A stretch of DNA of 64,000 nucleotides from Vulcanimicrobiota bacterium (GTDB lineage: Bacteria; Vulcanimicrobiota; Vulcanimicrobiia; Vulcanimicrobiales; Vulcanimicrobiaceae), in the NCBI GenBank assembly GCA_963714015.1, contig OY970223.1:2624001-2688000 (forward strand). Reading direction: 5' to 3'. This document shows positions 4,396 to 61,848 of the stretch, piece by piece. Within the stretch, counting starts at the first letter, position 1; each line of letters begins with the position of its first letter. Below the pieces are notes generated by a model. It was not told the origin of the DNA. It saw nothing but the letters and a program-made list of their open reading frames with translations, and made no database searches. The translations under genes and the position numbers were made by a program.

Positions 4396-4399
4396 CAGT

Positions 4400-10166: not shown

Positions 10167-10170
10167 GTGA

Positions 10171-36233: not shown

Positions 36234-37776
36234 TTAGACGCTGGCGCCGTGAGGCAAGAGGACCGCACGTTTGCGGCGCCCGCCGCCGGCGGTCAGAATC
36301 ACGTTAGAGTTGACCGTGACGTCGGTCGGCGCGATGATGTCGCGGATCGTGAGCCACGACATTTTGCACTTGCGACGCAGACGGTCGATCGGCGGCGTGA
36401 TAACCTGCGCGATGCCGTCTTGCATGGCAATGTACGCATCGTTGAACGAGCTGCGCGCCCAGTGCTCCATCCCCTCGTACCACGAGTCGATGAGCGCACC
36501 TTTACCGATGAGCATCGGCACGTGGACGTAACCGCCGCCCGGCAATGCGATGCGCGGAGCGTTGGTCGTGACCAGGAACGTGATGCCCAGGTAGTTGTCG
36601 ACGCGGCCTTTCTTGAACTCGGGCGAACGGCCGAGGGCCTGGAACGCCTGTTTGAAGTCTGCATCGCCGAAGAGGCCGCGGAACGAACGGGACGACCCGA
36701 TGCACAGGTACGTACCGTCGCTGAGCGGTTCCATCTTCTGGTCTTCCAGCCACGATTTACCGTCGAGCAGTTGCGACTGCGTCAACAGATTCGCCGCGGT
36801 CAGCTGCGACCAATGGATGTTGCCGGCACCGGCAAGGAATTGCCGCGGCGCGTCGATCGCAACGACGATGTCGCCGTTCGCCGGCGTTTTGCCGACGCCC
36901 GAGATCCCGATGGTTCCGAGCGCACCCAGACCCGCCGGCGCTCCGTACATCGAGAGCAGGCCCGACGCGCCGTTTGCGCGCGTCGGCGAGGCCGTAGCGC
37001 CGCCGGTCGGGGCCGGCGAACCAACGAGGTTCGTCAGCGTTTCGTTGACGGCGTCGGCCGCAGTGCCCACGACGACGACGTTGTATGCGCCCGCTTGCGA
37101 TCCGCCGGGGAACACGGTCGCAGCGAGCATGTAGTTCGCCGCATTTTGCGTCGACTGAACCTTACCATTGTAGATAATGGTGTCGAAGCCGCGGATGTCA
37201 TCCACTTCCCAGGTTGCGGCCGCACCGCCGACCGCAGCGAGCGCCGCGGAGGCAGCAGCTGTGCCCTTCGTGTCGCTGGTGAGGTAGCCGGAAAGCAATG
37301 TGTTGCGTGCGAGCAGGTCGCGCGACTGATACGACTGGATGACGTTGGTCTTGACGTTGTGTCCGAACCGGTCGACGATTGCGAAGTTCGTGCCGAGCAA
37401 GTCCAGATCCATGCCGTCTTCGTACGTCTCCGGCGTGATCGTGTATTGCTCGACGTTCACGTCCGAAGGCGTGATGCCGTTGTTCAATACACCGTCGTCG
37501 GCTGCCGTCGCGGCGTTGGTCATGATCTGAATGGGAGCCTTGAGGCCCGGACGCGTTTTCGTCAGCGTGGTACCGATGTGCTCGGCAAACGTGTCGAAAT
37601 CGCAGAGCGCTGCGTACTCGTTTTCGGGCTCGGCGAATTCCTCGAGTTTGCGCTCGAGATAGCCTTCCTGCAAGAGTGGCTGTCAGCTGCGCCGGCAACG
37701 CGGCGAGCGCGTCGTCGAAGAGAGCGACGACGAACGGCAGCGCCGCGATGGCGCAGCGCGCCTTCGTGGTTTTCAT
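36234..37776 (-). CDS. Major capsid protein, frameshift near 37678
   Basis: QEGYLER, IGTTLTKTRPGL, QSRDLLAR and PPIDRL..SW motifs; downstream of the scaffold. Confidence 0.85.
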
Positions 37777-37902: not shown

Positions 37903-38748
37903 TTAGCGAAGCGAACGTTTGTAGCGATCGAAGGCTTCGTCAGCGTTGACGTTCTTGTCCCGGAAGTTTGCGACTTTGAAGCCGCCCTCACCGTTTGCAG
38001 TCCCGCCGCCGTTCACCGAAGCTCCGGTCGCCGTCGCATTGCCGCGGTTGTCAGCACTGCCTTGACCGCTGCCCTGCCCGTTATTTTGTCCGGTGCCCTG
38101 TCCGGCGCCGTTCGCGCCGTTTGCACCGGTGGCTACACCGTTTTGACCGTTCGCTGCGCCGTTCTGGCCAGCGTTTTGTCCATCTCCCTGTCCGCCGGTT
38201 TGACCGTCGGCTGGTTTGAAGAAGACGGGCTTCGCCTCTTTGAACTTCGTAAGCGCATCGCTGACGCCAGTGACGTCGCCTGTTTGCTCGTCGATCTTGA
38301 TCCCCGCTCCCGCGTGTGCAAGGAAGAGATCCACAACGTCGCCGTCGATGACGCCGCTATTGCGGAGAGCCTCTCGCGCCTCGGCGCGGATCGCACGCTT
38401 GTCGACTAGTGACTGACGCGATTGGACGCCGTCGAGCGATGTCTTTAGTTCTCGGTTCTCGCGCCGGCGCTTGCCGTTTTCGTCGTTAAGCTCGCCGATG
38501 CGGCGATCTTGGTCGGAGATGATGCGGTGCGCCTCGGCCAGGTCCTGCGGTAGATCGCGCGCACGATTTCCGGCGTCGGCTCCGCGGGCGAATTGACCGC
38601 TAGCATTCCGGTTTACACCGGCCGCTCCGTTATTATTCTGGCCGGAACCATCGTTTTGGTTGCCGCCATTTTCCCCGCTGCCGTCGCCGTCATCGAAGAG
38701 GGCCACAGCAAAGGGCAGCGCCGCAAGGCGCGTCAGGGTTTGGTTCAC
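37903..38748 (-). CDS. Capsid scaffolding protein
   Basis: Low-complexity G/N/Q termini, coiled coil with ENGKRR, and K.AKPVFF motif. Confidence 0.85.
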   Translation of the reverse strand: MNQTLTRLAALPFAVALFDDGDGSGENGGNQNDGSGQNNNGAAGVNRNASGQFARGADAGNRARDLPQDLAEAHRIISDQDRRIGELNDENGKRRRENRELKTSLDGVQSRQSLVDKRAIRAEAREALRNSGVIDGDVVDLFLAHAGAGIKIDEQTGDVTGVSDALTKFKEAKPVFFKPADGQTGGQGDGQNAGQNGAANGQNGVATGANGANGAGQGTGQNNGQGSGQGSADNRGNATATGASVNGGGTANGEGGFKVANFRDKNVNADEAFDRYKRSLR

Positions 38749-38784
38749 GTGGAAGTCGCTTCCTTTCCGCGGCGCATCACGCGC

Positions 38785-40647
38785 CTATTCGGGTGTAACT
38801 TGATAGGCCGCCGTAATCTTCGCGTGGCTCTCAGCAATCGAGAGTTCGCGCTCTTCCGACGCGGCCGACTCGGCCTGAATGTCCGCCAGTTCTTGGTCCG
38901 GGTTGGCGACATCGAAGATGCCGGCACTGGCCGCAACGGCGGTTTCCTGGGTCACGATTTTTCCGTCGCGCGCACCGACGATTGCAGCGACTTCGGCCTG
39001 CTTTTCCGTACCCGTCAGCGTGTATGGTTGCGGCCATTTCGTTTCGATGTACGCATCGGATTTCGGCTGTGCCGCGCTGACATTGACGTCGATGTCTTTC
39101 GGCTCGACGGGCTCTGGCGGAGACGCCGCCGGCTGACCGTCTGCCTGTGTCGCCTGCCCCGCGCGGAACTGCTGGGTTTGCTGCAGTGTCTGCTGCTGGG
39201 CTTCCGCACGTGCGCGACGTTCGAGCAGCTCCGTGAGCATTGCTTCAAACGAAGGGAGTTGCACCTTCACTTTTTCGTACAGGCGCATCCCCAAGCGTAA
39301 CAGCGGCTCGATGCCGCGGTCTCCGTACGAGAGCTTGAGCACGCCAACCATACCGACCATCGCCTCGTTCAGGCGATACATCGCAGCGCCTGACAGTTCG
39401 CTTCCGGCCGTTTCCGGATCGATGCGCGAACCAGCACAGACTTCGCGCGCGATTTGGCGCAGCTTGTCGACGTACGTTTCGATCGCGACCTTAAGCCCCT
39501 CGCCGTGGATTTCGAGGAACTTTGCATCGCCGCCGGCTGGAATCTTGAGCGTATCGGATGCCGTCGCGCCCGGCGAGTCTTCCGGAGCATCCCAATCGCC
39601 GCCACCGTCTGCCGTGCTTCCGGTTGCGCCTTCGATTTCAGCGACTTGCGGGTCACCGGCGTAATCGAACGCCCGTCCCGTCTGCGAGAGCGTCCGGTCA
39701 ATGCGGAATTGAAAGTCGATGGCCGGCTCGAACGTGCACAACCCGTCCGGAAAGCATTCGTCGCGCTCGGGACCGTTAACGATCCAGATCGCGCACACTT
39801 CGCCGACGCTATGCGCGAACGATCGCCCGTTGTCGATGGGCCATTCCGTACGGTCGTTCCAATCGTCCGAATCATACAGCCACTTCGGAATTGGCTCGTA
39901 CCAGACTTCGGCGTTTTCTTCGAGGCGCAGGCGCATCGCCCACCAGAGCGAGGCTTGCGGCTGACCCGCGTTTGCCTGAGCCAGTGCTTTGAGCCGCTGC
40001 GCTTTCGCGGTGCGACCGTACTTGAACGCCTGCCATTTCTCTTCGAGCGCGTCGACGTCGTAGCCACGCGCACGCAGATTATCCGCTCTGACGAAGTAGG
40101 TGCGCTCGAGCGATTCGAGATCCGTCGGTGCCCACGGTTTGAAGACCGGGGAACACTCGACCGCGTCCCACACCTCGAGGAAGTACCGGCCCGGCGAGCT
40201 CTGCGTGGCGTTCGGGTCGCCGGACGTGAATGTGTTCTTCGCGAGCACGCGCAGCACGATCGCGACCGAACCGGACTGGCCGTGGAGCGCCGCCTTCCAG
40301 AGGTGCCACCACAAGTTCGTGTCTTTGATGAACGCCATGATCCAGGCGTTGGTCGCGTCATCGTTTCGAACGAACGGCACCGGCCGGTGACCCTCGCCGA
40401 AGAGCATGTTCGCGAAGCCGCGCGCAATGACGAGCGGCAGGCGGTCTTGCACCGATGCGCGCCGATCGTCGAGCGATATCCGGTCTTCGTTGACGCTATC
40501 TTTGAACTCGCGCGTGAACGGGTTCGCGATGTGCGCGTACAGTTTGCCGTCGAGCGCGAGGTCGCGCGCATTCAGCAGCCGCTGACGGTCCGACCATTTA
40601 CGGGGCTGCGCCGACTTGATGCGCTCGATGAACGCTTTGAAGTCCAA
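38785..40647 (-). CDS. Portal protein
   Basis: 620 aa between TerL and scaffold; MLFGEG..P, IDRTLSQ.GR...YAGDPQ and SGAAM motifs. Confidence 0.85.
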   Translation of the reverse strand: MDFKAFIERIKSAQPRKWSDRQRLLNARDLALDGKLYAHIANPFTREFKDSVNEDRISLDDRRASVQDRLPLVIARGFANMLFGEGHRPVPFVRNDDATNAWIMAFIKDTNLWWHLWKAALHGQSGSVAIVLRVLAKNTFTSGDPNATQSSPGRYFLEVWDAVECSPVFKPWAPTDLESLERTYFVRADNLRARGYDVDALEEKWQAFKYGRTAKAQRLKALAQANAGQPQASLWWAMRLRLEENAEVWYEPIPKWLYDSDDWNDRTEWPIDNGRSFAHSVGEVCAIWIVNGPERDECFPDGLCTFEPAIDFQFRIDRTLSQTGRAFDYAGDPQVAEIEGATGSTADGGGDWDAPEDSPGATASDTLKIPAGGDAKFLEIHGEGLKVAIETYVDKLRQIAREVCAGSRIDPETAGSELSGAAMYRLNEAMVGMVGVLKLSYGDRGIEPLLRLGMRLYEKVKVQLPSFEAMLTELLERRARAEAQQQTLQQTQQFRAGQATQADGQPAASPPEPVEPKDIDVNVSAAQPKSDAYIETKWPQPYTLTGTEKQAEVAAIVGARDGKIVTQETAVAASAGIFDVANPDQELADIQAESAASEERELSIAESHAKITAAYQVTPE

Positions 40648-40843
40648 GGCTAGCTCCTACAGGTCGACTACGCGAACGCGTGCTTGTGAAATGCCGTCTC
40701 GCCGACGAAATACGCCATATCGATGTCGCGCTGGAGTTTCTCCAGGCTCTGAATGAGACTTATATGCTCACCGCAGTACTCAACCCAGTGGGAGAAGGAA
40801 CCGGTGATAGTGTACGGCTGACCGTGCCAGTCCAAATGTTGCA

Positions 40844-42315
40844 TCATCGCCTGGGATCGGCTCCCTTCGCCGGCGCGCGCACCGGAAAGTCCTCAGCGAT
40901 CGGATACGAGAACGCGTCGCCAAAATGTGTGTTCGTGGCGCCGTCATCCGCCTTCTTGACAAGCGGCTCCGACGTGCCGGGTTTGTAAAACTGCGTATTC
41001 AAGTCGATCGCCAGGTACTTGCAGCGCGGATGAATCACCACGCCGATCTCGCCTAGGCCGTTGACGAGTTTGGCGTTCGTCGCATTGTACCGATTACGCC
41101 GTAGCGGCGCACCCTCCGGAATCCGCCGCGAGATCGCAAGTCCGTAGGCGACGAGCCCCTTACGCAGCGCAACCCAATCCGACTCGCCAGTCTGCCGGCT
41201 GCGCTGATTGCCAGCCGGGTCGCCATAGAGAACCAGGCCGTTGCGCTTTGCGATTTGCAGCGGCAACGGTTCGATTCGCCGAACTCCACCGCGGCATGCT
41301 CGATGCGCGCGTCGCGGATCCGCATTTCGTCCAGCACGTACATGACGATCGCCTGGAAGCCGTTAACCTTGAGGCGGCGCCACTGAAAGAGCACCGTACA
41401 CAGCGGATCGATGTTGAAATCTTGCGACCAGCAGACTTCGCTTTGCGGGTCCCACTCGAGCGCCGGGATTCCGTAATCGCTGGCCATCATCGGCGTCACG
41501 ACGTGCTTGCCACGGCTGAACGACCGCCAGATCTTGCCCTTGCCGATGTCGCCGAAGTTGCCTTTGAGTTCGATGTCGACGAGCTCGGGGTCCATCGTCT
41601 CGAGCAGGGAGCGGATGTACGCCTTCGGCAGAAATGGATTGTCGAAGGTGCTCGACGTGTAGAGTTTCATCGGCGGCGCTTTTGGAGCGTCCGGAGCGCC
41701 TGAGCGTTCGGTCTCCATCACACCGACCAGCGCCATCAAATCGTCGTCGGTCTCGTTCGCGGGCTTGGTCGTGAAGTCAACCAGCCAATGGTCTGTCGTG
41801 TGCGGCGGGTTCGCCGTGACCCACAGTTGCTGGCCGATCTCGCCGTAGATGTGGCGCGTACCGTCGTAACCGCGCAAGCGGCCGAGGAACGTAAGGAACG
41901 CCATCTTTGGCCAGACGTGACCCTCGTCGAGCCATCCGAAGTCGACTTCAAGCGACCGGAACAACTCCCAATCGTCAGCCGTCCAGCATTCGATCTTGGC
42001 GCGGACGAGCCGCGGGCCAACCCACTTCGAGACGATGACGTACTTTTCGCGAATGCGATCGACGTACTCGAAGCCCCAGTGCCGGCACCGGGCGAAGAAC
42101 GTCATCATCGTACCGCTCTTCAACTGTGCGAACGTGTTCGACAGGATGAAGAAACGCGCGAGCGGGTAGCGGATGACCTTCGCAAGCAGTTTGTCGCTGG
42201 CGACGTAGGTCTTACCGGTGCCGACTCCGCCGACATACGCCACGAGGCGGCTCTCGTCGTAGAAGAAATCTTCTTGGGCGGGCAGATGCTTGAGGTTGAT
42301 GACTTCCTGTCGCAT
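40844..42315 (-). CDS. Terminase large subunit, frameshift near 41270
   Basis: Walker A GGVGTGKT, Walker B WLDEG, TANP and DNPFLP; nuclease QDFNIDP, YGDPAG and HFGDAFSY. Confidence 0.93.
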
Positions 42316-42358
42316 CGCCGTCGCGGCACTCCGTGAGCATCACGCTCGGGAAAAATCG

Positions 42359-42733
42359 TTAGCGAGACATCAGGTGCGCAAGAGACCGCCGACGCATTGT
42401 GCGCCGTACTGGCGTGAGCGGCTTCATCTCGCGTTCGACCGATCCGCGCGCCATCTCGAATACGTCCGCCACGCTCACCCGAACAATCAGCGTCTCGATC
42501 TTGCTCGGCAGCACCGCTCCGGATGACTCATCCCGGAACGCCTCCCCGTAGAGCCGTCGGATAACGAGCCCTTCGCAGCCGCAATCGACGCCTTCCGTGA
42601 AGAGCATCGCAACGTCGACCCGTAAGGCCATCGTTTGTCGGCCGGCGGGAATCGCAAGTTCGATCGTGTTCAGCCCGCGCCGCTGCGCATCACGCGCTTT
42701 GCTGTAGGCCGTCTCCATCGTGTCGTACTGCAT
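42359..42733 (-). CDS. Hypothetical protein
   Basis: ORF packed between TerS and TerL. Confidence 0.5.
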   Translation of the reverse strand: MQYDTMETAYSKARDAQRRGLNTIELAIPAGRQTMALRVDVAMLFTEGVDCGCEGLVIRRLYGEAFRDESSGAVLPSKIETLIVRVSVADVFEMARGSVEREMKPLTPVRRTMRRRSLAHLMSR

Positions 42734-43043
42734 CGCGTCTTTCGATTGTGATAGCCGCCGGATATTTCTCGGCTAATTGCTCGAGCAGCAGCAAGACCTC
42801 GTCGACGATCGCCGCACACACCGGCAGATTGTCGCGCCAGGCAATCATGAACCGCGGCAGCTCGGCCGTCTGTTCCACCGCCTCGAGCGCCTCGAGCGCC
42901 TCGAGCACGTGCGCCAGCGTGCGGAGCACGAATGTCATGGCGATGCAGGCATCGCGATTCCACGCGTGGCCCGTCGCGGTAATCCGCCGGACCGGAAACC
43001 CGAAGTCCACCGAATCGACCCGCTCGAGAACGACGGTCGTCAC
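42690..43043 (-). CDS. Hypothetical protein
   Basis: Overlaps the TerS stop (GTGA coupling). Confidence 0.5.
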   Translation of the reverse strand: MTTVVLERVDSVDFGFPVRRITATGHAWNRDACIAMTFVLRTLAHVLEALEALEAVEQTAELPRFMIAWRDNLPVCAAIVDEVLLLLEQLAEKYPAAITIERRDAVRHDGDGLQQSA

Positions 43044-43666
43044 GACGCTTCCTTCGTGGCCATAACCTCGGCCCGATTCGCCGGCGCTATCCGTTCCGTC
43101 CGAATCACCACTTCGACCGGCTCGTTCGTATCGGCACCGTCCGTACTCGCCTCGCCGTTCCCCTTGCCGGCAATCATGCGATTCATCTTTGTCGCCCGTT
43201 CCGCTGCGCTCAGCAACGCGTTCAAAACGTCGGCCTCGGACTGATGCATCCCCGGCACGATCGCGCCGCGCATGTATCGCCGCAACCCGCGCCGCGCCGC
43301 CCGCTGGGCCATGACGCCGAGCTTCGTCTGCTCGAGCAACGGATCAATGTCTTGCTGCTCTTCGTCGATCGGCTCGTCCGGAATGTCACCCGGATCGGTG
43401 TCCGACTTGGGGCGACTTTGCCCGTCCCCCAAGTTCCGCTTTGGAGTGTGTCCACGGCGTTGCGAGAGGTCGATGACGTTTGTTTCTTGCGCGCGCGCGA
43501 TCTTAGGAAGCGGCCATGGATTGCCCGATTTTTGGTCGGCTTTGCGTCGATTGCGAATGGCCTGCTCGGTGGCGCCGTACTTTGCGCTGAGTTCCGCGAA
43601 GCTTCGCACGCGTCCTGACTGGATGTCCGCCCGCATGGCGGCCCAATCGTACCGATCCGTGGACAT
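43040..43666 (-). CDS. Terminase small subunit
   Basis: N-terminal HTH (DWAAMRAD...ELSAKYG..EQAIRNR); AGGAGG RBS; upstream of TerL. Confidence 0.75.
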   Translation of the reverse strand: MSTDRYDWAAMRADIQSGRVRSFAELSAKYGATEQAIRNRRKADQKSGNPWPLPKIARAQETNVIDLSQRRGHTPKRNLGDGQSRPKSDTDPGDIPDEPIDEEQQDIDPLLEQTKLGVMAQRAARRGLRRYMRGAIVPGMHQSEADVLNALLSAAERATKMNRMIAGKGNGEASTDGADTNEPVEVVIRTERIAPANRAEVMATKEAS

Positions 43667-43705
43667 CCCGTCCTCCTTGCGCCCGCGTCGCGCGAGCCTC
43701 CGTTC

Positions 43706-44065
43706 CTACCCTGCGTGAATCGTCACTTTCGGCGTACCGGCAGTGAGCGCAGAGCAGCGCGCCTGAATCATGACGTAACCGCTGACGTCTGCAACCCACA
43801 ACCCGACCGCTGATGCCGACGTAACGGCGGCACCGCCGCTGCTGGGCGTCATCGCAAGCGGATTCCAGTTCTGACCGCCGTCAATCGACACTTCGAACTC
43901 GAACGTGGCTGTGAAGGCGCCCCCGAATTGCTCGATCTGGATCGATGCCGTCTTGGCAAGGCCAGGAAGAGTAATGCCGACGACGGCCGTGGCCGGCGCG
44001 GGATTCGCACTGGCCGATGAAATGATGTCGGCGTAATCGCGAACCTTGTCGATCGCAAATCCCAT
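43706..44065 (-). CDS. Single beta-sandwich virion decoration-like protein
   Basis: FEVSIDGGQNW motif; resembles an internal domain of the 19744 gene. Confidence 0.6.
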   Translation of the reverse strand: MGFAIDKVRDYADIISSASANPAPATAVVGITLPGLAKTASIQIEQFGGAFTATFEFEVSIDGGQNWNPLAMTPSSGGAAVTSASAVGLWVADVSGYVMIQARCSALTAGTPKVTIHAG

Positions 44066-44066
44066 G

Positions 44067-44312
44067 CTATCCTTTCACGGCCGGGTAGAACCCGCAAAAC
44101 TGCCCGCGCGCCGCCAACTCTCGAGCGATCTTACGCTGGTCGCGCGTCTTCGGCCCGAGCAATACGCGGCCGTCAACGGCGTACACCTTCGTGAGGACGA
44201 CATAGGCGCCGTCGATGGGCGGAATGCTCTTCGCCTTCATGGCCTCGACAGCGGCCTCTATGTCGGATGCTCTCGCACTCTTTACTCTCGTCCCTGTGCG
44301 AAGTCTCGACAT
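44067..44312 (-). CDS. Hypothetical basic protein
   Basis: GAGGG RBS; abuts the next gene. Confidence 0.45.
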   Translation of the reverse strand: MSRLRTGTRVKSARASDIEAAVEAMKAKSIPPIDGAYVVLTKVYAVDGRVLLGPKTRDQRKIARELAARGQFCGFYPAVKG

Positions 44313-44483
44313 CCGGCCCTCAGTTTCATCGAAAGTAAAGCATACGCGGTTTCCCTTGGGCGCGTCCCTTCGGGACCGGGCTGTCGTGCCTTCGGCATCG
44401 AGCCCGCAAGCGGTCTCGCCCCTGCGGGCGTCCATCCCTCGCGCGCTCGCCAGCGCCGTCAAAAAAATCTTTTCGCCAGGTAC

Positions 44484-44535
44484 TTGACGGTAACTGTAAC
44501 ACGCGCTATAGTAACTGTAACAGGTAACTGTAACA
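44484..44535 (+). promoter_or_regulatory. Sigma70-type promoter overlapped by three 12-bp direct repeats GTAACTGTAACA
   Basis: TTGACG (44484-89), 17-bp spacer, TATAGT (44507-12); repeats at 44490, 44511 and 44524. Confidence 0.9.
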
Positions 44536-44553
44536 CCAGAAAGGACCGCCGCC

Positions 44554-44745
44554 ATGACCATCCAGATCGAAGTCCGCAACGTCTACGGCCAAATCAAAGT
44601 CTATCCGGCCTGCGAGAAAGCCCGCCACTTCGCCAAGATCGCCGGCACCACGACCCTCACGCACGCCACCCTCAGTGAAATCGAAGCCCTCGGCTACGAG
44701 ATCGTCAACGCCACCGAGTCGCTGAGCTGGAAGCACGCGGCCTAA
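44554..44745 (+). CDS. Small phage protein (63 aa), operon gene 1
   Basis: AAAGGA RBS; strongly biased codon usage. Confidence 0.8.
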   Translation: MTIQIEVRNVYGQIKVYPACEKARHFAKIAGTTTLTHATLSEIEALGYEIVNATESLSWKHAA

Positions 44746-44747
44746 TC

Positions 44748-45005
44748 ATGACGATAGCAAATGCAGTTCGCACCCTCGCCAAGCACGGCGAAGTCAAGCA
44801 CTACGGCGGCAACCCGGAAACGTGGAATGGATTCTGGTTCGTCGAGATCGGTACGGACGCCGTGGAAGTGTTCTCATGCGGCCAGGGACCAGACCGGGAA
44901 GCCGTGATTTCGGTCCGGAGCGCTACGCACGACGGCTGTGGCGCGACCTTCTTCCCCTCGCTGCGCTCAGCCATTCGGTGCGCCTCAAGGACGATGGCAT
45001 CATGA
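44748..45005 (+). CDS. Small phage protein (85 aa), operon gene 2
   Basis: Starts 2 nt after the previous stop. Confidence 0.7.
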   Translation: MTIANAVRTLAKHGEVKHYGGNPETWNGFWFVEIGTDAVEVFSCGQGPDREAVISVRSATHDGCGATFFPSLRSAIRCASRTMAS

Positions 45006-45142
45006 ACACGGTCACCGTAACGCTAACCAGCGCTCAGGCAGCCGCCCTAGCGGAAGCTGCTCAGATGGTCGTCGATGATCTCGACGAGGACGTCCAGGAA
45101 ACACTGAAAACCGCTATCGGCATACTTCAGGAGGCACTATGA
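45002..45142 (+). CDS. Small acidic protein (46 aa), operon gene 3
   Basis: ATGA coupling; MNTVTVTLTSAQAAALAEAAQMVVDDLDEDVQETL. Confidence 0.7.
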   Translation: MNTVTVTLTSAQAAALAEAAQMVVDDLDEDVQETLKTAIGILQEAL

Positions 45143-45324
45143 AACCGCGCGATCTCGCCGACCTTGAGACCATGGTTCACGCCGATGAACTGCGCCTCTC
45201 GCCCGCGTTCATGGCTGACGGCTCCGTCGTCTGGAGACTTATCGCCTACGACCGCTATAACGGCGGATGCTGGTCGGGGCTGCTCGTCGAAATGGGACGG
45301 ACGAATGGCTCTCACACCCGCTGA
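45139..45324 (+). CDS. Small phage protein (61 aa), operon gene 4
   Basis: AGGAGG RBS; ATGA coupling. Confidence 0.65.
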   Translation: MKPRDLADLETMVHADELRLSPAFMADGSVVWRLIAYDRYNGGCWSGLLVEMGRTNGSHTR

Positions 45325-45463
45325 AAAGATGCGCCGACGGCGACAGACGCTCCGAAACAAGGGGCTCTGTACCGTTTGCGGACGCCGTAAGGCCGTCAAG
45401 GGCACCGTCTGCAAGCAGTGTAACGATGAAGCGAAAGAGCGCGTCAAAAAGTCTCGCGCCTAG
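45305..45463 (+). CDS. Small basic Cys4 zinc-finger protein, operon gene 5
   Basis: MALTPAEKMRRRRQTLRNKGLCTVCG...VCKQC; paralog of 3070. Confidence 0.8.
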   Translation: MALTPAEKMRRRRQTLRNKGLCTVCGRRKAVKGTVCKQCNDEAKERVKKSRA

Positions 45464-45849
45464 TCTGCGTCTCGCAATCTGCGTCCGGTCGCCTCGATGA
45501 CTTTGCCCAGCATACTGATCGCCTCCGGCCTCGTCGCCATACTGAACATGTACTTGAGCTTGTCGTCGGAATCCTCAACAATGAGCACCGCGGGCTTACC
45601 CGCTCGAACCGCAGCGATCATCTTGTTGAGATAGGCTTCATCCTCGGGACCGAGCACCGTCGTACCCTGCTCTTTGGCCGTGAATTGGACTCCGGCCGAA
45701 ATCGACTTTAAGAGCTCGTCCGGGTTCGGCTTGTCCATTGGCGCCCTCACCGTTTGGGATAATGTTCGGACCATGTCAGCTCCGCAGCGCTGGCAATCGC
45801 GGCCCGCTGGCCCGATGTGAAAGCTACAGGGCTTCATCGCAGACTCCAA
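45460..45849 (-). CDS. Hypothetical protein (start uncertain)
   Basis: ORF converging on the small-gene operon. Confidence 0.45.
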   Translation of the reverse strand: MESAMKPCSFHIGPAGRDCQRCGADMVRTLSQTVRAPMDKPNPDELLKSISAGVQFTAKEQGTTVLGPEDEAYLNKMIAAVRAGKPAVLIVEDSDDKLKYMFSMATRPEAISMLGKVIEATGRRLRDAD

Positions 45850-45977
45850 AATTGCAGACGCCGCGGCGCGGAGGTGGACGCTGCGGCGTCATCTTCCGCA
45901 AGCGCAGATCGGGCGCCGACAAACCACACGCAGTGCCTGCCGTGGCCGCAGCCTATCGCCCCGCTCGCGAAACCTGC

Positions 45978-46346
45978 CTAGGTGTACGCGTCCTTGACGC
46001 GCACCAGCAACCGGTCTTTGAAGTAATCGCCGGTCACGCTGTTCTTGCCGTGGAACTCCACGACGAATAGTCCGCCGGTCGGCGGCGGGAATTCCGTGCC
46101 TTGCAGCGTCCAGAGCGCCTCGGTTCCATCTTGGCTCGGCGCACAGTTGTACCGATTGGGAGTACTCCCCGCGCCCGACTGCACCGAGTACGGCGCCACC
46201 AATACGTAGACCGACCATCCGGAATCGTTCAGATTGATCGACGGATCGCCAACCGGAAGACCGATGACCTTGCCGGCCTCACCGCAGTAGCACAAGACTG
46301 CGACGGGTTGGCCGTTAACCTCCCCGTACATAGCCGTCGTGCTCAT
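45978..46346 (-). CDS. Beta-rich virion accessory protein
   Basis: GAGG RBS; coupled to the repeat-fibre gene. Confidence 0.55.
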   Translation of the reverse strand: MSTTAMYGEVNGQPVAVLCYCGEAGKVIGLPVGDPSINLNDSGWSVYVLVAPYSVQSGAGSTPNRYNCAPSQDGTEALWTLQGTEFPPPTGGLFVVEFHGKNSVTGDYFKDRLLVRVKDAYT

Positions 46347-46350
46347 GCGA

Positions 46351-48282
46351 TTACCTCACCGGCGATGTCCGCAGCGTAACCTTCGATTGGAACCCGCTCC
46401 TGAGCGTCACGTGGGTTACGAACGACGTCGCTAAACGCGGGATATCGTTGATATTGAACGCAAAGGCAACGCCCGAAGCCGCAGAAACAAGTACTGCACC
46501 GCCTTGCTCAGCGCTGTACGACTGCCCAGCGGCCGCGTCGAACAGTGTCGCTGCACCGCGCGAAAGTATGAGACCGAAGCCGCGCGCCGCCGAGGCGAGC
46601 GCTGCTGCGCCACCGTTGAACCCATGACCAACACCGCTGGCCGCCGATTGCAATACGGCGCTTCCGCGCTGAACAATGACGTTCGCGCCTGCCGCTGCTG
46701 CGGCAAGAACGGCTGCGCCGCCCGAAACGCCCCAGGCGCTGCCGCTCGCATACGCGGCAAGCTCTGCAGCACCGGCAATCGCGTTGACAATGCCATGGCC
46801 GATCGCCGTCGCGGAGAGCACTGCCGCGCCGCGCGCGTGAATGAGATCGTAGCCGGCGGCATGCGACGCTAGGACCGCTGCGCCTTCGAACTGCGAGTTG
46901 GAAAACCCGTGCGCGTACGGCGCGAGCTCCGCTGCACCGGCGCTCAGAACGACGTCGGAACCCGATACAACCCACGACGAGAAGATGAGCGGGATCGAAA
47001 CCGCGCCGGAGTTCGGTAGAACCGCCCAGCCAGCCGAATAGACAATCGCGTGTCCGGCGCCCGCCGAAGCGAGCACCGCTGATCCGGAAGACTGTTGGAC
47101 GACGCCGCCCATGGCATGCGAAGCGAGTTGCGCTCCGCCGGTAGAATAGACGAGACCCCTGCCGGAGGCATTCGCCGCGAGCAACGCTGCGCCGGCACCA
47201 TTGACCTGCGCACCGCCGGATCCGTTCGATCCCAGGACGGCGTACGCCCCGCTATCGACGACGTTATGGCCGCCTGCACCGCTCGCGATCTGCGCCGCGC
47301 CATTCGAATTCCCGAACGCCTTGCCGCTTGCACTCGAAACGAGAACCGCGGCACCGTTTGAATTGCCGTGCGCGGAACCGGAGGCATGCGCAATAATCTG
47401 GGCTGCGCCGACACCGTCGACGATACCGTGGCCGACGGCCGCGTTCGCTAGCGATGCAGCGCCGTTGCTGTTGCCGCGATCGGTCCCCGATGCAGCCGAG
47501 GCGAGGACGGCCGCGCCCTTCGAGTTGCCGTGGTCCGTCCCGCTCGCTGCAGCCGCAAGGACCGCAGATCCTTTGGAGTTGCCGTGCGCGCTGCCGCTCG
47601 CATTTGATGCGAGAACCGCAGAGCCGCTCGATGATGCAACGGCGCCGCCGGGCGCGAGAAGCGCTATCGCTTCGTACGTCGAGTGCGAATGCGTCGCGCT
47701 CCACGTAACTTGCGCTGTGGCGGTTGCGCCAAGCGCGACCAAACTTCCGTCGTACTGCGTCTCGATTTGGCAGTGGCCTGAAGAGGATGCAGTCCCTAAA
47801 TCCGTCCAGCCCGAGCCAACGCCCGAAACCGTCTGGGTCGTATCGACGTCTGCAAACGCCGCAACGGCTTGCGCGTTCGCCGCTGTGCACGTGTTGCTCG
47901 TTATCGTCGCCGGATTGACCGTGCCGGCTTGATTCGCGATCTTCGACCCGGCATCCGGGGAAGAATTGTTGACGCCGCCCCACTCCTCAACGGACCATGC
48001 GGCGTACGACGAACCACCCCACGAGACGGTGCCGAGCGCGGTAGTATCGCCGCTCTGATTCGGACGCCAGTAGATCCCGAGATTGTTCGTCCCGCTCGCG
48101 ACCTTGATCGTCTTCCAGTTCGCATCGCTGAACGTAATCGTTTGCGAGGTCGCGTTGGAGATGAACAGGAACAGCAGGATGCCGTTGCCGAGCGTCGGCG
48201 TTTTGCCTGCGGTCAGGGTGAGCGAAGTGACGGCCGCGGCCGCACCATTCTTGAATGATCCTGGGACGAGGGCAATAGCCAT
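46351..48282 (-). CDS. Gly/Ala-rich repeat fibre-like protein
   Basis: N-terminal beta domain of about 210 aa, then many approximately 18-19 aa G-x-A-V-L-A-S-x-A-x-G repeats. Confidence 0.7.
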   Translation of the reverse strand: MAIALVPGSFKNGAAAAVTSLTLTAGKTPTLGNGILLFLFISNATSQTITFSDANWKTIKVASGTNNLGIYWRPNQSGDTTALGTVSWGGSSYAAWSVEEWGGVNNSSPDAGSKIANQAGTVNPATITSNTCTAANAQAVAAFADVDTTQTVSGVGSGWTDLGTASSSGHCQIETQYDGSLVALGATATAQVTWSATHSHSTYEAIALLAPGGAVASSSGSAVLASNASGSAHGNSKGSAVLAAAASGTDHGNSKGAAVLASAASGTDRGNSNGAASLANAAVGHGIVDGVGAAQIIAHASGSAHGNSNGAAVLVSSASGKAFGNSNGAAQIASGAGGHNVVDSGAYAVLGSNGSGGAQVNGAGAALLAANASGRGLVYSTGGAQLASHAMGGVVQQSSGSAVLASAGAGHAIVYSAGWAVLPNSGAVSIPLIFSSWVVSGSDVVLSAGAAELAPYAHGFSNSQFEGAAVLASHAAGYDLIHARGAAVLSATAIGHGIVNAIAGAAELAAYASGSAWGVSGGAAVLAAAAAGANVIVQRGSAVLQSAASGVGHGFNGGAAALASAARGFGLILSRGAATLFDAAAGQSYSAEQGGAVLVSAASGVAFAFNINDIPRLATSFVTHVTLRSGFQSKVTLRTSPVR

Positions 48283-48297
48283 GCTGCGATGCCCCCG

Positions 48298-48700
48298 TCA
48301 GAATACTACGGCGTGAGATCCTCGGTGAAGCTTGATGCCCGTGTTCGATCCGCCCTGCTGAACCGCTACGGCCGAACCAAACGTGCGATGGTACAAGCAG
48401 TTTCCGCCCGTTAGCGCATCGTAGATCGCGACTTCGGTGATGTTGATGGCCGCTCCGGAGTTCGCCGCGTTGATCGTTCCTGTGCATTGCAGCGTGTCGT
48501 TCGCGATGTTCAGGGTCGTGAGCGTCTTCGTCGCGGCCACGCGCGCATAGCCGGCGGTCGTGTCCTCGGTGAACAGTCCGGTATCGGTTGCACCGGCGGT
48601 TCCCGCTCCGGTTCCCCAGGCCAGATACAACGCGATGCCATCGAGATACGCAGCCAATTTGACCGCGCAGGTTTGCGTTACCGCCGCAGACTGCAGCCAT
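48298..48700 (-). CDS. Fibre-anchor-like structural protein (apparent frameshifts at both ends)
   Basis: WGTG...DTGL..E and NITEVAIYDALTGGNCL motifs; GAGGAG RBS at ATG 48700. Confidence 0.6.
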
Positions 48701-48839
48701 GAACTTCTCCTCTTCAGCCTAAAACCTAGACAAATCCGCCGGGCGGGTGATCTTCTGGTTCGCGCGCGAACGCGCCCATACGCTCGAGAATCTCTACAGC
48801 CAGCGCGACGAGCACAACGGCAAGAACGAACCAGCGCAT

Positions 48840-49025
48840 TTAGCACTCCTCGTCCGGATCGGCAACGTGCGGCAACGGCTTCGAATCACGACAGCTCACA
48901 AGCGCGATCGCCCAGCCCGCCGCAGTTCTTGTCCGGACGAGGTAGCCTTCCGACGTCCGGTCATACACCTGCCATCCCGCTCGCAAGGCTTCAGAAAGCG
49001 ACCTAAATACGAGAATCCCTGGCAT
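48840..49025 (-). CDS. Small hypothetical protein
   Basis: GAGG RBS; MPGILVFRSLSEALRAGWQVYDRTSEGYLVRTRT. Confidence 0.6.
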   Translation of the reverse strand: MPGILVFRSLSEALRAGWQVYDRTSEGYLVRTRTAAGWAIALVSCRDSKPLPHVADPDEEC

Positions 49026-49033
49026 TAGCAACC

Positions 49034-49522
49034 TCACGCTTTCGCGATGTGGAACCAACTGCTTCCGCGAATTATTTTGCGTAGGTGACCCGGAGAAAGC
49101 CCGTACAGTGACGCGATCTCAGCCGTCTTAACGGTCTTCGCTAAGTCACGAATTCGAGCGACGTCGGCGTCGCTGATCTTGGCGGTATGACAACGAGCAC
49201 CGTGTACGTGGCGCATTTTATCATTGCGATCTTTTGCGTTCACAAGAGCATCGCCAAGGAAAAGGTGGTCCGGATTAAGACACGGCGGATTATCGCATGT
49301 GTGGCATATCTCGAAGCCTGCAGTCTTAACCTCAGGGTTAGCCAAGGCAAACGCTATCCGATGAGCCTTGTACATCGAGCCACGGATCTTGACGGCTCCG
49401 TATCCGTTGCTAAATCGAGCCCCAGACCACTCCCAGCAGCCCGCAGTCTTTCCTACTTTCGACCAAAAGCGCGCGAGTTCGGCATCGTCAAGGAGCGGGC
49501 TCTCCTTCCCGGTTGCCGGCAT
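49034..49522 (-). CDS. HNH homing endonuclease-like protein
   Basis: CWEWSG, AHRIAF and CHTCDNPPCLNPDHL..G....N motifs plus C-terminal HTH. Confidence 0.92.
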   Translation of the reverse strand: MPATGKESPLLDDAELARFWSKVGKTAGCWEWSGARFSNGYGAVKIRGSMYKAHRIAFALANPEVKTAGFEICHTCDNPPCLNPDHLFLGDALVNAKDRNDKMRHVHGARCHTAKISDADVARIRDLAKTVKTAEIASLYGLSPGHLRKIIRGSSWFHIAKA

Positions 49523-49805
49523 ACCGTGCTCCTATAGAAAATCTGAAAAGTGCCAGCTTTGAGCGCGTCGGCGAGCGACTTGAAAACCAGTATCCCGGAC
49601 ATCGGAGCACCCCGCTAGCCGTTGGGCCAGACTTTGTGGATGATCTCTCTAAACACTTTGCCGATCGCTTGATTTTTGCGATCTTGCGTGCGGTAATACC
49701 GCTCGACGTGCGTTACCCGGTCCGACGTCGCCATGGAATGCAGCAGCGCACCGAGCGAAAAGACAAACGTGACGAGCAGGATCGCGACAAACGCCGGATC
49801 GACGC

Positions 49806-50192
49806 TCATATTGAAACTTTACGAGATTCTCGCTCCGCGGTCGCTCGTAACCGCGCGGCCAGCGATTCAAAGAACACGCGGGCTTCGATACCAGCGTTTT
49901 GGACGGCCTCAGACTGAAACGCGAGATACTCGCAGCCGGCCGCAAGAGCGCGAGCAGTGGCCGGATCCGTTGGAAAGGCAACATGAGGCAGCGCAGTGTC
50001 CGCCGGCGTGGACTGAACAATCGCGGGGCTTCGCTTTGGGCGCGCGAGAACCGCGCGGCCTTCGTCGCCACGCCGCTCGGCGCGTCCCGGATCGAATTCG
50101 GTCCAGGGGACGCCGCGATGCTTGACGCACGCGTGCACGCTCAGTGAATTTTCGCTTCCATAGCCGCGCCCGCAAATTCCGCAGATCAACAT
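49806..50192 (-). CDS. C2H2 zinc-finger protein
   Basis: CGICGRGYGSENSLSVHACVKH. Confidence 0.65.
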   Translation of the reverse strand: MLICGICGRGYGSENSLSVHACVKHRGVPWTEFDPGRAERRGDEGRAVLARPKRSPAIVQSTPADTALPHVAFPTDPATARALAAGCEYLAFQSEAVQNAGIEARVFFESLAARLRATAERESRKVSI

Positions 50193-51367: not shown

Positions 51368-51967
51368 TTACGAACGCCGTTTCGATTCGCTGATGAGCGC
51401 GAGCGCTTCGGACGCCGGAACGATGAATCCATCGACGATCGCCATGCCCTCCGGGATCGGGCCGCCGGTATACCGCTGCGCCTTGGAATTCTTGGACTCG
51501 GCTATGCGTATCCGGTTATCTGCACTTTCGACCGATTTTGTCCGGGTATCGCGTTTCGGACGGTCGACGATCCGCACGTGCGCCGGCTCGTACAGCTTCG
51601 TCACGATGATGTTTACGCGGTGCGGTCCGGCGTCGTCATATCGGACGAGCATCTGCGAAGGATTGGCAAGGCGGTCATCGGACCAGACGCCGGCGGCGGT
51701 CAACGCGTCCCATTCCACTTTCGAAAGGTTCGACGCGTCGACGCGTGCACGCCGATTCAATACCCGAATGATGGTCGCCGAGCATTCGCATTCCGCAGTT
51801 ATCCAACCGGTGCGGAAGATCGCGTCTTCCGCCGCGCGCTTGACGAGATCGAAAACGGCCTTGTAGATCTCCGACTTGCGGGGATCGCGAAGGCCGCGGT
51901 TCCGATTGTTGACGGAGGCGTACTTGCCGTCCGGAAGTTCGATCGAGAGCGCTAAGACATCCGCCAC
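51368..51967 (-). CDS. RusA-like Holliday junction resolvase
   Basis: SVNN and DASNLSKVEWDALTAAGVWSDD motifs. Confidence 0.75.
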   Translation of the reverse strand: MADVLALSIELPDGKYASVNNRNRGLRDPRKSEIYKAVFDLVKRAAEDAIFRTGWITAECECSATIIRVLNRRARVDASNLSKVEWDALTAAGVWSDDRLANPSQMLVRYDDAGPHRVNIIVTKLYEPAHVRIVDRPKRDTRTKSVESADNRIRIAESKNSKAQRYTGGPIPEGMAIVDGFIVPASEALALISESKRRS

Positions 51968-52204
51968 GCGATCTATTCTATCACGACTGCCTTCTTGTAC
52001 GAGCCGCGCGTCGACGTAATCACCGTCGAGTAAGAACCCGATCTTCGGGGGACAGAAAGAGACCTTCGTTGCGCGCAATATTGCCGTAAAGCCAACCGGC
52101 CTGATACGCTGCGTTGAGAATCTCTCTCTTGTCATGGGGTCCGCCAACCAGACCTGCGTCAAAGCCGCGCTTCCATTCCTTGGGGTACTTGCGGTGCAGC
52201 TCCG

Positions 52205-60206: not shown

Positions 60207-61052
60207 TCACAGACCCTCCGGCATCAGTACCTGTCCGCCGAGAGTCTTCGCAAACGCGTATTCAAGATGCGCGACGTGCAGCACATGGGAGGGCGTCGGC
60301 TCGTTCTCCGAGATCATCTTCTCCGCGCCTTCATCCCCGAAGTTGTAGGCCAGCGTGCTCACCGCGAACCGGTTCTTGTATACCGGATTCACCGTCGCGG
60401 GCAGCGTGGGAATCAGTTTGTCGGCAAAAGCCAACTCTTCACGCATCTTGTTCGCAAACCAAGGCACGGCTTTAGATGGATCGCAAAGGAACGCGTGCGC
60501 TGCGAACACGTCTTCGATCTCATTGCTTCCCAAGAGGTACCGGATCTTGCCTTGCGCTACGCCGACGTCGTAGCCGCACGGGTCCTTCGCCTTGTTCGAT
60601 CCGAGGAAGTTGCCGTTCTGGCATTGCACGTCGAATACCGATTCGATGCATAAGCACGCCAGCACATACTCGACGGTGAACCCGTCGACGGCTTCGGCTT
60701 TGACCCGATCGGCAACGGCCTGCCCCTGGGTTTCGTCGATCTTGTGGATGACGACGCCTTTTTCCGCGATAACGAGCTGGCCGTCGATGAACGACGTCTT
60801 CCAGTTCTGATCGAGAATCAGCTGCGTCAGGGGATCGGTATGCGCGACTACCGGAGCAGACTGCGCATTCGCAACCAGCGTTGCGGGCTCGACCGGATGC
60901 TCGTCGACAATGGTCAGATCGAGCGTCGCGTGGAACCGGTGATAAACGCGGTCTGCGATGCGTTCCCGCTCGCGATCGGTAAGGTGCACGAGCGCGTAGT
61001 TATGCTCGATGCCGTATTTGTCGAATTCCTGCCAGACTTCCAAAGTGCTCAT
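60207..61052 (-). CDS. Lysozyme-like / SLT-domain protein
   Basis: CIES (catalytic Glu), DVGVAQ, DP and LAYNFG motifs. Confidence 0.65.
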   Translation of the reverse strand: MSTLEVWQEFDKYGIEHNYALVHLTDRERERIADRVYHRFHATLDLTIVDEHPVEPATLVANAQSAPVVAHTDPLTQLILDQNWKTSFIDGQLVIAEKGVVIHKIDETQGQAVADRVKAEAVDGFTVEYVLACLCIESVFDVQCQNGNFLGSNKAKDPCGYDVGVAQGKIRYLLGSNEIEDVFAAHAFLCDPSKAVPWFANKMREELAFADKLIPTLPATVNPVYKNRFAVSTLAYNFGDEGAEKMISENEPTPSHVLHVAHLEYAFAKTLGGQVLMPEGL

Positions 61053-61567
61053 ACCGCCTCCGTTAAAACTTCCGAGCCCCATACGGTCCATCCGGATCGC
61101 GGCTCTCTCGCAAACATTTCAAGTCGCGGTCCAGGCGACACGCGCTCGATCGCGGCGTACGCTTCCGCCGGCTTCGCGCTATGACGTCCGCGCGGCGCGT
61201 GAACCACTGACGGCACGTTGCGGACTTCGGGTACCATCGCATCGCCGCGCACGCCGAATAAGCACAGCTCGTGCTGCCCGCGCAGGTACTGGCCGAGACC
61301 GATCTTGTCTTTGCACCAGACGAGATTCGTGACGTAGCGGAAACCGAGCGCCGACATCACGGTAAGACCGTCAGGTAAAAAATTGTTCGTTGTCCACAAC
61401 CAGAGGTGCGCGCTCTCGTCGATCGTCCAGACGTCGGCGCGCTGCACCGTGTAAATGATCGAGGCGATGTCCATCGTCGGATAATGCCGGTCGGCGCCGC
61501 GCTTGATCTGGCCGCCTCCGTGCTCCTGCCAGGGCGGGTCCATCGCGACCGTTTTGAACGCCGTCAT
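61049..61567 (-). CDS. MT-A70 family adenine methyltransferase
   Basis: MDPPW, LWLWTTN, HSAKP and LEMFAR motifs. Confidence 0.92.
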   Translation of the reverse strand: MTAFKTVAMDPPWQEHGGGQIKRGADRHYPTMDIASIIYTVQRADVWTIDESAHLWLWTTNNFLPDGLTVMSALGFRYVTNLVWCKDKIGLGQYLRGQHELCLFGVRGDAMVPEVRNVPSVVHAPRGRHSAKPAEAYAAIERVSPGPRLEMFAREPRSGWTVWGSEVLTEAV

Positions 61568-61848
61568 AGCGTCTCGCCGTAGCCAGCCTTCCGGCTGAGT
61601 AGATCGACGACCGTCCGAAGCATGCGTACGTGGGCATCGCGCGCCCCAGTCTTGACGTCTGCATTGATCTCGCACAGGCTCTTCGGCTCTTTGAAGACCG
61701 GCGTGGCTTCGAGAAGAGCGAGCAGCGCGCGGTCCGCCGGCGTAAAGAACAGCGTTCCGCGCCTCTTGGCGAGCTCCCGACGGATCTGCACGGCGTTACT
61801 CATCGCATGCGATCTCGGTAATGCGCAGCGGTAAGGCATCCGGCTGGA

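Follow-up and report, generated by a model that had tools for sequence, protein, structure and literature searches.

The 64,000-nucleotide stretch considered here (the window; positions 2,624,001 to 2,688,000 of contig OY970223.1, from an uncultured soil bacterium of the Vulcanimicrobiota) contains a prophage that carries, next to its packaging genes and on the opposite strand, a cassette of five short open reading frames (ORFs), ORF1 to ORF5. This cassette appears to be a mobile, self-repressed accessory operon, in which an exchangeable payload is controlled by a zinc-ribbon autorepressor encoded by the last gene, and we put the probability of this reading at roughly 0.55. According to the proposed mechanism, a near-consensus sigma-70 promoter would drive five translationally coupled small genes, and a protein bound to sites in the spacer, over the -10 and start point and in the early leader would exclude or block RNA polymerase. 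ORF5 would be the cognate DNA-binding autorepressor, ORF1 a conserved leader gene that typically opens an operon divergent from the terminase genes, and ORF2 to ORF4 the exchangeable payload, acting on the host early after DNA entry.

Promoter, operator sites and gene order

The promoter is the only sigma-70-like site in 43500-46500, where shuffled sequences gave a mean of 0.6. It is overlapped by three exact 12-mers, GTAACTGTAACA, which read GTAAC-T-GTAAC-A and extend from the spacer into the leader (Table 1). Promoter-overlapping repeats of this sort are a feature of acr-aca operons, in which anti-CRISPR genes are followed by the gene for an autorepressor, Aca1 to Aca13 being helix-turn-helix (HTH) proteins. 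An initial annotation of this DNA had described both the near-consensus promoter with its three exact repeats and a run of coupled ORFs of 63, 85, 46 (acidic), 61 and 52 amino acids (aa) opposite to the late genes near terS, and both descriptions hold. ORF1 and ORF2 are separated by 2 nt, the next two junctions are ATGA overlaps, and ORF4 and ORF5 overlap by 20 nt; four of the five ORFs (ORF1, ORF2, ORF4 and ORF5) are backed by homologs. The stop codon of ORF5 overlaps that of a convergent late-strand gene by 4 nt, so there is no room for a terminator after ORF5. The operon thus runs head-on into a late gene, and tight shut-off would therefore also protect the late genes from antisense transcription.

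No other exact copy of GTAACTGTAACA exists in the 3.56-Mb genome. Four single copies with one mismatch occur elsewhere, which is the control level (6+1 found, 6+2 in the control), and a looser pattern, GTAACNNTAAC, is matched 13 times in the genome, compared with 22 matches for its reversed control, and forms no second cluster. The host therefore has no regulon of such sites. One of the ten GTAACNNTAAC matches outside the promoter falls inside the 0.9-kb cassette, near the start of ORF3; this candidate fourth site could be a by-product of the codons for TVTVTLT. The GTAAC sites are very likely a transcriptional operator.

Recurrence of the module in other loci

Is the arrangement peculiar to this prophage? 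The same module was found in four further loci: a genome of the same genus (G002), two IMG/VR sequences (L173 and L181) and a JGI metagenome (L174). In all of them GT[A/T]AC-N-[G/C]TAAC sites occupy the spacer and the -10/+1 region, the first gene is an ORF1 homolog and the middle genes are variable; an ORF5-type gene comes last in all four of the complete cassettes (window, L173, L174 and L181). The register of -35, spacer and -10 is kept in all four further loci though the flanks diverge, and in 5/5 related cassettes the spacer position of site 1 is occupied by GT[A/T]AC-N-[G/C]TAAC.

Within this common frame, both the operators and the genes vary. G002 has two direct GTAACGCTAAC sites, a direct GGTAACGCTAACAC pair of which the first lies in the spacer and the second after the -10, at the place equivalent to site 3 of the window; its ORF1 (81% identical) is followed by a different 55-aa CxxC protein and an ORF4 homolog, where the contig ends. 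L173 has an inverted pair, GTTACCGTTAC in the spacer and then GTAACGGTAAC, the second in the same TATAGTAAC register as site 2 of the window, and its ORF1 homolog is followed by two unrelated acidic genes of 68 and 58 aa and an ORF5 homolog. The operator pair and register of L174 are those of L173, so that the register of window site 2 (TATAGTAACnGTAACAG) is found in both; here the ORF1 homolog precedes three genes, including an ORF2 homolog, and an ORF5 homolog. L181 carries two GTTACAGTAAC sites at the same two positions, an ORF1 homolog, a 117-aa gene and an ORF5 homolog with a Lys-rich tail. The terminal ORF5-type gene abuts a convergent, non-homologous gene, with a 4-nt overlap in the window, L174 and L181 and a 17-nt gap in L173.

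Two observations indicate that the module has moved as a unit: the cassettes of the window and G002 stand on opposite sides of the same 92-aa gene, and they share about 130 bp upstream of the -35. The acr-aca-like architecture put forward in the initial annotation is thus borne out, in that promoter and operators, variable small genes and a terminal Cys4 protein recur in four further loci. The same annotation had named a lack of variable small-gene neighborhoods around homologs as an outcome that would speak against it; the neighborhoods are variable.

The repeats could also be read as a packaging signal, with sites for the terminase small subunit comparable to the R sites of lambda cosB. The presumed terS is 0.8 kb away, with the repeats on its upstream side; terminase genes are frequent neighbors of the module; and L181 encodes a terS-like protein with weak similarity (E 0.002) to that of the window. 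However, the spacing of the sites relative to the -35 and -10 hexamers is constant in five loci, and there are sites both in an integrative island that is not a phage and ahead of ORF5-type genes without a terminase in the neighborhood, which makes a packaging role very improbable indeed.

Other candidates were set aside. TAAC-N1-3-TAAC, considered as a general operator of the ORF1 family, has 36 matches in 724 kb and stands at a promoter only in G002 and in L023, an ORF1-bearing locus discussed below. TTGACGGTAACNNTAACAC is present at 28 IMG/VR loci, with no -10, second site or ORF1 start in the 140 nt downstream; most of these loci are one conserved coding stretch in low-GC contigs. A structured RNA at 44345-44480, in and around the GC-rich stretch ahead of the promoter, was dropped because its folding was no better than that of shuffles (z -0.3 on the plus strand and -1.5 on the minus strand), and Rfam gave no match at E <= 1 in 43500-46500.

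The ORF5 zinc-ribbon family

In its predicted structure (pLDDT 93), ORF5 has a Cys4 knuckle flanked by two basic helices. Lys and Arg make up 17 of its 52 residues, and the protein ends 12 residues past the second CxxC. A word-index search gave no candidate relatives, and a full HMMER scan was needed; this returned 173 matches at E <= 1e-3, which fall into three groups. The first consists of single-unit proteins of 52-111 aa that are 46-63% identical and start with MALTPAEK, and all four Cys are invariant among the 17 members aligned. The second consists of tandem arrays of 3-7 units, one of which (P0022) ends in an HNH nuclease motif. The third, in the host phylum, forms the N-terminus of regulators of about 600 aa of the TPR/LuxR type. 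ORF5 itself carries the family signature, with the four invariant Cys (CxxC-x10-12-CxxC) between two basic helices and the start M-A-[LM]-T-x-AEK.

Relatives of ORF5 were found in 80 of the 401 genomes of the phylum searched, a tally that takes in four genomes flagged as unpublished (G178, G046, G157 and G069); a separate tally, 14 of 41, takes in G021 and G023. Within the window there is a distant second ORF5-type gene of 62 aa (3070-3258, plus strand; profile E 2e-9), about 6 kb beyond the endolysin gene. The fused proteins are common in the host bacterial family: at L112 (G140:C9, 1-1692, minus strand) and about ten similar loci, proteins of about 570-700 aa carry an N-terminal ORF5-type zinc ribbon, and the one examined has a long helical TPR-like middle and, by eye, a LuxR/GerE-type C-terminus.

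Against Pfam-A, ORF5 did not match the HTH or ribbon-helix-helix (RHH) families to which known Aca regulators belong. Its match to the double zinc ribbon family DZR_2 (PF18912; 18.8 bits, E 0.0014) is below the 27-bit gathering threshold. An assignment as HNH endonuclease was rejected, as the PHROG matches were weak (E ~0.06, over the zinc ribbon) and the HNH motif is lacking.

Which protein binds the sites?

ORF5 is probably the binder of the GTAAC sites, to judge from co-occurrence, position and charge. The comparison covers 97 loci at which an ORF1 relative is encoded: the window itself, 8 loci from genomes, 80 from IMG/VR, L173, L174, L181-L183 and three phage records. Four of them, namely the window, L173, L174 and L181, have an ORF5 homolog (profile E <= 1e-3). 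The motif GT[AT]AC-N-[GC]T[AT]AC occurs within 250 bp upstream of ORF1 in five, each with at least two sites, and these are the same four loci plus G002, whose contig ends early; the other 92 have neither the motif nor an ORF5 homolog. The background for the motif is 13 matches in 774 kb. An ORF1 tree, which is poorly resolved, places L173, L174 and L181 together with L023 in one supported clade and the window and G002 elsewhere.

Less circular evidence comes from further loci that were scored after the motif had been fixed. At L186, TTGACA and then GTTACTGTAACCGTAAC stand 25-40 bp ahead of the ATG of the first gene, the product of which shares the N-terminal MAMTSAEKVRAYRERQ helix of the ORF5 family alone and has no zinc ribbon. 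Among 32 distinct loci of ORF5 relatives in the host phylum, the motif lies upstream of the ORF5 operon in three: G334:C11 has two sites 34-48 bp before an ORF5-type ORF, in G093:C147 a single site stands ahead of a Uma2-like gene and the ORF5 homolog comes after that gene, and G314 has a promoter made up of TTGATT, GTCACAGTAAC in the spacer, TATACT and then GTTACAGTAAC. It was visual inspection and a broadened expression, rather than the fixed motif, that revealed the GTCAC variant in the G314 spacer. The G314 operon encodes a protein with the anti-restriction domain ArdC-N (PF08401; E 6.6e-12, 46 bits against a cut-off of 22.6 bits), a HExxH protein and, last, an ORF5 homolog; the island around it also encodes two tyrosine integrases and an excisionase-type HTH protein. 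An ORF1 relative is absent from L186, G334:C11, G093:C147 and G314.

Two of these elements have further features. The G093:C147 locus (L136) contains near-identical 53-aa ORF5-type genes at 4273-4434 and 11561-11722, 7.3 kb apart, with an 815-aa protein, several small genes and the Uma2-like nuclease gene between them; such a layout resembles an inserted island with a duplicated gene at either end. Adjoining the ArdC-N/ORF5 operon of G314 is a gene (L188, G314:C1, 10339-15903, minus strand) for an 1854-aa DEAD/Helicase_C protein with a MrfA-type zinc-binding domain, which may be a defense gene beside a counter-defense operon. A pattern scan for ORF5 also pointed to L185, which is probably spurious: there is no separate ORF5-type gene, and the match lies where minus-strand ORFs of 136 and 904 aa meet.

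Could ORF1 be the regulator instead, as a site-specific Cro-like protein, leaving ORF5 with another role? ORF1 is present in 5/5 cassettes and has a helix-loop-helix segment (FAKIAGTxTLT and the helix that follows). Between the window and G002, a change in the operator (TG versus GC) goes together with changes at three positions of the second ORF1 helix, and L023 combines an ORF1 of the L173 clade with a loosely similar site pair and no ORF5 homolog. On the other hand, 92 other loci with ORF1 relatives lack the motif, and the motif accompanies ORF5-type genes at the four loci without ORF1 listed above. The putative recognition helix of ORF1 differs strongly between the window and L173/L174, whereas the GTAAC half-site is unchanged and the ORF5 helices are conserved; moreover, the two ORF1 helices are joined by a loop that exceeds a classical HTH turn in length, and there is no match to an HTH family or fold. 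A regulatory role for ORF1 is thus quite improbable.

A different alternative is that the operator is bound by a repressor encoded elsewhere, either the main repressor of the prophage or a host factor, and that the cassette is a moron expressed in the lysogen, for example for superinfection exclusion. ORF5 would then be a further payload protein, such as an RNA- or DNA-binding effector. Like phage morons, the cassette has its own promoter, an orientation opposite to the late genes around it, and a different insertion side relative to the 92-aa gene in the sister prophage of G002, all of which suggests moron-like mobility, and a moron-type module expressed in the lysogen is possible. The host chromosome also has ORF5 paralogs, for example that at 3070-3258, and a putative LexA-like DNA-binding protein, recognized by eye, is encoded at 63181-63414. 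However, the site is found nowhere else in the prophage and forms no second cluster in the genome, so a regulator from elsewhere would control this promoter alone, and the site is found together with ORF5-type genes in elements and hosts that are unrelated. Morons usually include a terminator of their own, unlike the cassette, which abuts a convergent late gene with overlapping stop codons. A repressor from elsewhere is therefore distinctly unlikely.

The reading of ORF5 as autorepressor of an accessory operon has to accommodate several observations that weigh against it. The count of five in 97 is partly circular, because the motif was derived from those five cassettes, and many of the 97 loci are near-duplicates and some are incomplete on one side. 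The motif is missing from the vicinity of stand-alone or fused ORF5 relatives in 29 of the 32 distinct host-phylum loci, and from L187. L023, as noted, has no ORF5 homolog within 6 kb, although its site pair is loosely similar and its ORF1 is from the L173 clade. The orientation of the half-sites varies, from direct in the window to palindromic in L181, and such variation is uncommon where there is a single binding mode. Structure searches with the ORF5 model gave no informative neighbor (best Z 3.6; Foldseek E > 1), and the sole solved neighbor at the level of sequence is the rRNA-binding zinc ribbon of eL37, a weak profile match (E 5e-4) that would fit nucleic-acid binding, not DNA binding specifically. 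Finally, none of ORF1 to ORF5 matched a known counter-defense, defense or regulator family in Pfam, PHROGs, NCBIfam or PADLOC.

The ORF1 family and the position of the cassette

ORF1 belongs to a family of small phage proteins with 18 clusters among 5.8 billion proteins. It occurs at 8 loci in species-representative genomes from several phyla and at 524 loci in IMG/VR, and is rare in the host family (2/201 genomes searched). Window ORF1 has the core VYG..YP...A..FA.IAGT.T...L..LGY, defined from 18 aligned proteins with 11 invariant columns. The AlphaFold (AF2) model (pLDDT 85) is arranged strand-strand-helix-helix-strand, for which no neighbor was found in the PDB (Foldseek E >= 0.45; best Z 3.5) and just uncharacterized phage proteins in BFVD. 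A profile search against solved structures gave nothing below E 0.16, Pfam, PHROG and NCBIfam searches gave no match, and ORF1 as a single query found nothing in the JGI metagenomes.

Frequently, an ORF1 relative directly follows a strong promoter as the leading gene, as in L024, L033, L044, L089 and L102. A scan of neighboring genes covered the first 150 of 230 neighbor proteins of at least 90 aa, from 21 of 29 representative loci; in six of these 21 viral loci (L026, L032, L039, L044, L061 and L072) the ORF1-led operon is divergent from the terminase genes. The same divergence is seen in L020 and MW202496, and L173 has a TerL-like frame 3.4 kb away. Three phage records contain an ORF1 relative, including Roseobacter phage CRP-1 and Pelagibacter phage HTVC024P, where it lies 1.7 and 0.4 kb, respectively, from the first base of the linear record, within a same-strand run of genes annotated as hypothetical. 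The position near terS noted in the initial annotation is thus a recurrent one next to terminase genes, and the idea that the cassette enters the cell early fits with this.

Several of these loci are of interest in themselves. The large terminase of the Bacteroidota-binned phage L020 (1443-3947, minus strand) has a LAGLIDADG domain, which suggests an intein or the insertion of a homing endonuclease. In the circular phage genome MW202496 (L177; 5218-5544), a gene deposited as MqsA-like comes after the ORF1 relative, which hints that other regulators fill the role of ORF5 in other lineages.

What do the payload genes do?

A counter-defense or host take-over role for the payload is plausible by association, at somewhat less than even odds. 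The association has three sources: the architecture of the cassette; the ArdC-N operon of G314, which has the same operator and terminal gene; and the neighborhoods of ORF1 relatives. ArdA is encoded downstream of the ORF1 relative in L020 and L021 (2/7 genome loci), Mom in L061, a C5 methylase in L034, and a Lar-like protein, with a score below its cut-off, in L033. The initial annotation had proposed an anti-defense cassette with a Cys4 regulator. Its architecture and the co-occurrence of motif and regulator stand, and for the anti-defense function the support is that of association, there being no family match.

Of the window's own payload genes, ORF2 is related to the third gene of L174 (BLASTP E 2e-9 over 48 aa). 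ORF4, common to the window and G002, has one other homolog in 5.8 billion proteins besides the G002 fragment, and in IMG/VR just a match to a 12-residue fragment. For ORF3, the least certain of the ORFs and the one with the lowest GC3 in the cassette (0.60), no homolog was found in Pfam, PHROGs or by homology search. Atlas look-ups for ORF2 and ORF1 returned unnamed viral clusters or scores below 0.8, and none of the cassette genes matched ArdA or ArdC in Pfam. Because no cassette gene in the window matches a known counter-defense protein, any function proposed for the payload is by inference.

Relationship to known systems

Counter-defense genes have been found mostly via conserved regulators and, to our knowledge, the regulators of counter-defense operons were all HTH proteins until 2026. 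The cassette resembles acr-aca operons in its strong promoter with repeats over -35, -10 and +1, its short variable genes and its conserved last gene for a small protein of DNA-binding type, the family of which also occurs in an anti-defense operon (that of G314). It differs in that no known Acr or counter-defense gene was found in the window cassette (Pfam, PHROGs, NCBIfam and PADLOC); that a Cys4 zinc ribbon, instead of an HTH or RHH protein, is the candidate regulator; that GTAAC half-sites in tandem, direct in the window, take the place of the usual inverted repeats; and that there is a second conserved anchor, ORF1, at the front. Since the regulator fold is not that of the known Aca proteins and no Acr was found, the locus is not classed as an acr-aca operon, but is read as working like one. 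It resembles phage counter-defense operons in general, with a candidate regulator of a type that is not known for them.

Small phage zinc-finger regulators offer another comparison. P2 Ogr and P4 Delta, Mu Com, lambda-type TraR/DksA-like proteins and Lar are 50-75 aa long, have a CxxC...CxxC zinc site, and serve to regulate phage genes or to relieve restriction. ORF5 is like them in size and in its CxxC...CxxC site, but matches none of them at E <= 0.1 (Pfam-A). The leading and early regions that carry ArdA or ArdC, for their part, likewise have small genes at the end of an element, next to entry or packaging functions; ArdA lies downstream of ORF1 relatives in L020 and L021, and ArdC-N in an operon that ends with an ORF5 homolog, whereas the window's own genes match neither. 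Leading regions of mobile elements are described as carrying anti-defense genes (10.1101/2024.10.15.618418).

The bolder proposition, which is tentative and on the whole rather unlikely, is that the ORF5-type Cys4 zinc ribbon may add to HTH and RHH a third structural class among Aca-like autorepressors. It would read tandem GTAAC half-sites through its conserved N-terminal basic helix and be portable among prophage cassettes and integrative islands of Eremiobacterota and related soil phages. A recent article presents Aca14 as the first RHH Aca and asks whether zinc-finger domains also regulate acr operons (PMC13551039). A narrow literature search for a zinc-containing or non-HTH Aca gave nothing relevant, which does not imply absence from print.

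The surrounding prophage

The genome is a single contig of 3.56 Mb with about 60% G+C. Pfam and PHROGs scans show that a minus-strand prophage, which also includes tape measure and baseplate genes, fills most of the window (Table 1). The cassette, on the plus strand with minus-strand genes on both sides, lies between a group of unannotated minus-strand genes (48846 down to 45460) and the packaging genes. The 208-aa protein designated terS had no match to a terS family in Pfam, PHROGs or NCBIfam, so its identity rests on position. TerL seems to be split between overlapping minus-strand frames at 41053-42315 (420 aa, with an Arg-rich tail) and 40844-41266 (140 aa), which could reflect a frameshifted pseudogene, an assembly indel or a programmed shift; the TerL family scan covered the first frame.

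The last ~120 nt of the convergent gene (92/129 aa; 45460-45849) are conserved as DNA, at 73-82%, in 13 of 24 other genomes of the family, and a second copy of this 3' stretch is present in the same genome (G000:C1:517048-517166). The protein itself has no family match in Pfam or NCBIfam. Between the early region and the packaging genes, 46351-48282 (minus strand) encodes a 643-aa protein rich in Ala, Gly and Ser with many short repeats (...GSAVLASxASG...), for which there was no Pfam, PHROG or NCBIfam match. No DNA similarity to 50,697 phage records was found (megablast of 38000-50000; blastn of 44300-45600), a scan of the window for tRNA and tmRNA was negative, and no sequencing runs, RNA included, were listed as containing 43900-45900.

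Table 1. Features of the cassette and the surrounding prophage (window coordinates).
Feature	Position	Strand	Remarks
DNA methylase	61049-61675	-	prophage gene
RusA-like resolvase	51368-52162	-	prophage gene
Convergent late-strand gene	45460-45849	-	stop codon overlaps that of ORF5
ORF5, 52 aa, pI 11.0, CxxC-x10-CxxC	45305-45463	+	proposed autorepressor
ORF4, 61 aa	45139-45324	+	payload gene common to window and G002
ORF3, 46 aa, acidic, pI 4.1	45002-45142	+	variable payload gene; least certain ORF
Candidate internal fourth site, GTCAC-C-GTAAC-G-CTAAC	45011-45027	+	5' end of ORF3
ORF2, 85 aa	44748-45005	+	variable payload gene; homolog is L174 gene 3
ORF1, 63 aa	44554-44745	+	phage small-protein family; first gene of module
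Operator site 3, GTAACTGTAACA	44524-44535	+	5' leader, ahead of AAGGA ribosome site and ATG at 44554
Operator site 2, GTAACTGTAACA	44511-44522	+	overlaps last 2 nt of -10 and expected transcription start
Operator site 1, GTAACTGTAACA	44490-44501	+	fills spacer directly after -35
Sigma-70-type promoter, TTGACG-17-TATAGT	44484-44512	+	-35 at 44484-44489, -10 at 44507-44512; 10/12 consensus matches
GC-rich stretch with several small hairpins	44356-44480		~76% identical in G002 despite different upstream gene
"terS", 208 aa	43040-43666	-	by position only, two genes upstream of TerL
TerL	41053-42315	-	Pfam and PHROGs (Terminase_3/6N, phrog_2)
Portal	38785-40647	-	prophage gene
Major head protein	36234-37673	-	prophage gene
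Endolysin	9471-10289	-	leftmost phage-family match

Significance

Why does such a cassette matter? If the bolder proposition is true, ORF5 and the ORF1 leader, which would mark terminase-adjacent operons in hundreds of phages, would provide two anchors for guilt-by-association searches, and these could find counter-defense genes in lineages in which no Acr or Aca is known. The locus is a concrete candidate in this respect, consisting of a 52-aa protein, a site of 11-13 bp, five natural operator variants and an exchangeable payload, in Eremiobacterota (Vulcanimicrobiota), a phylum that has no cultured phage-host system. If ORF5 is not the regulator, what is left is still a well-delimited mobile cassette of tightly controlled small genes. 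If it is, its relatives, together with the ORF1 family, would point to many unexplored small genes, maybe acting on host immunity.

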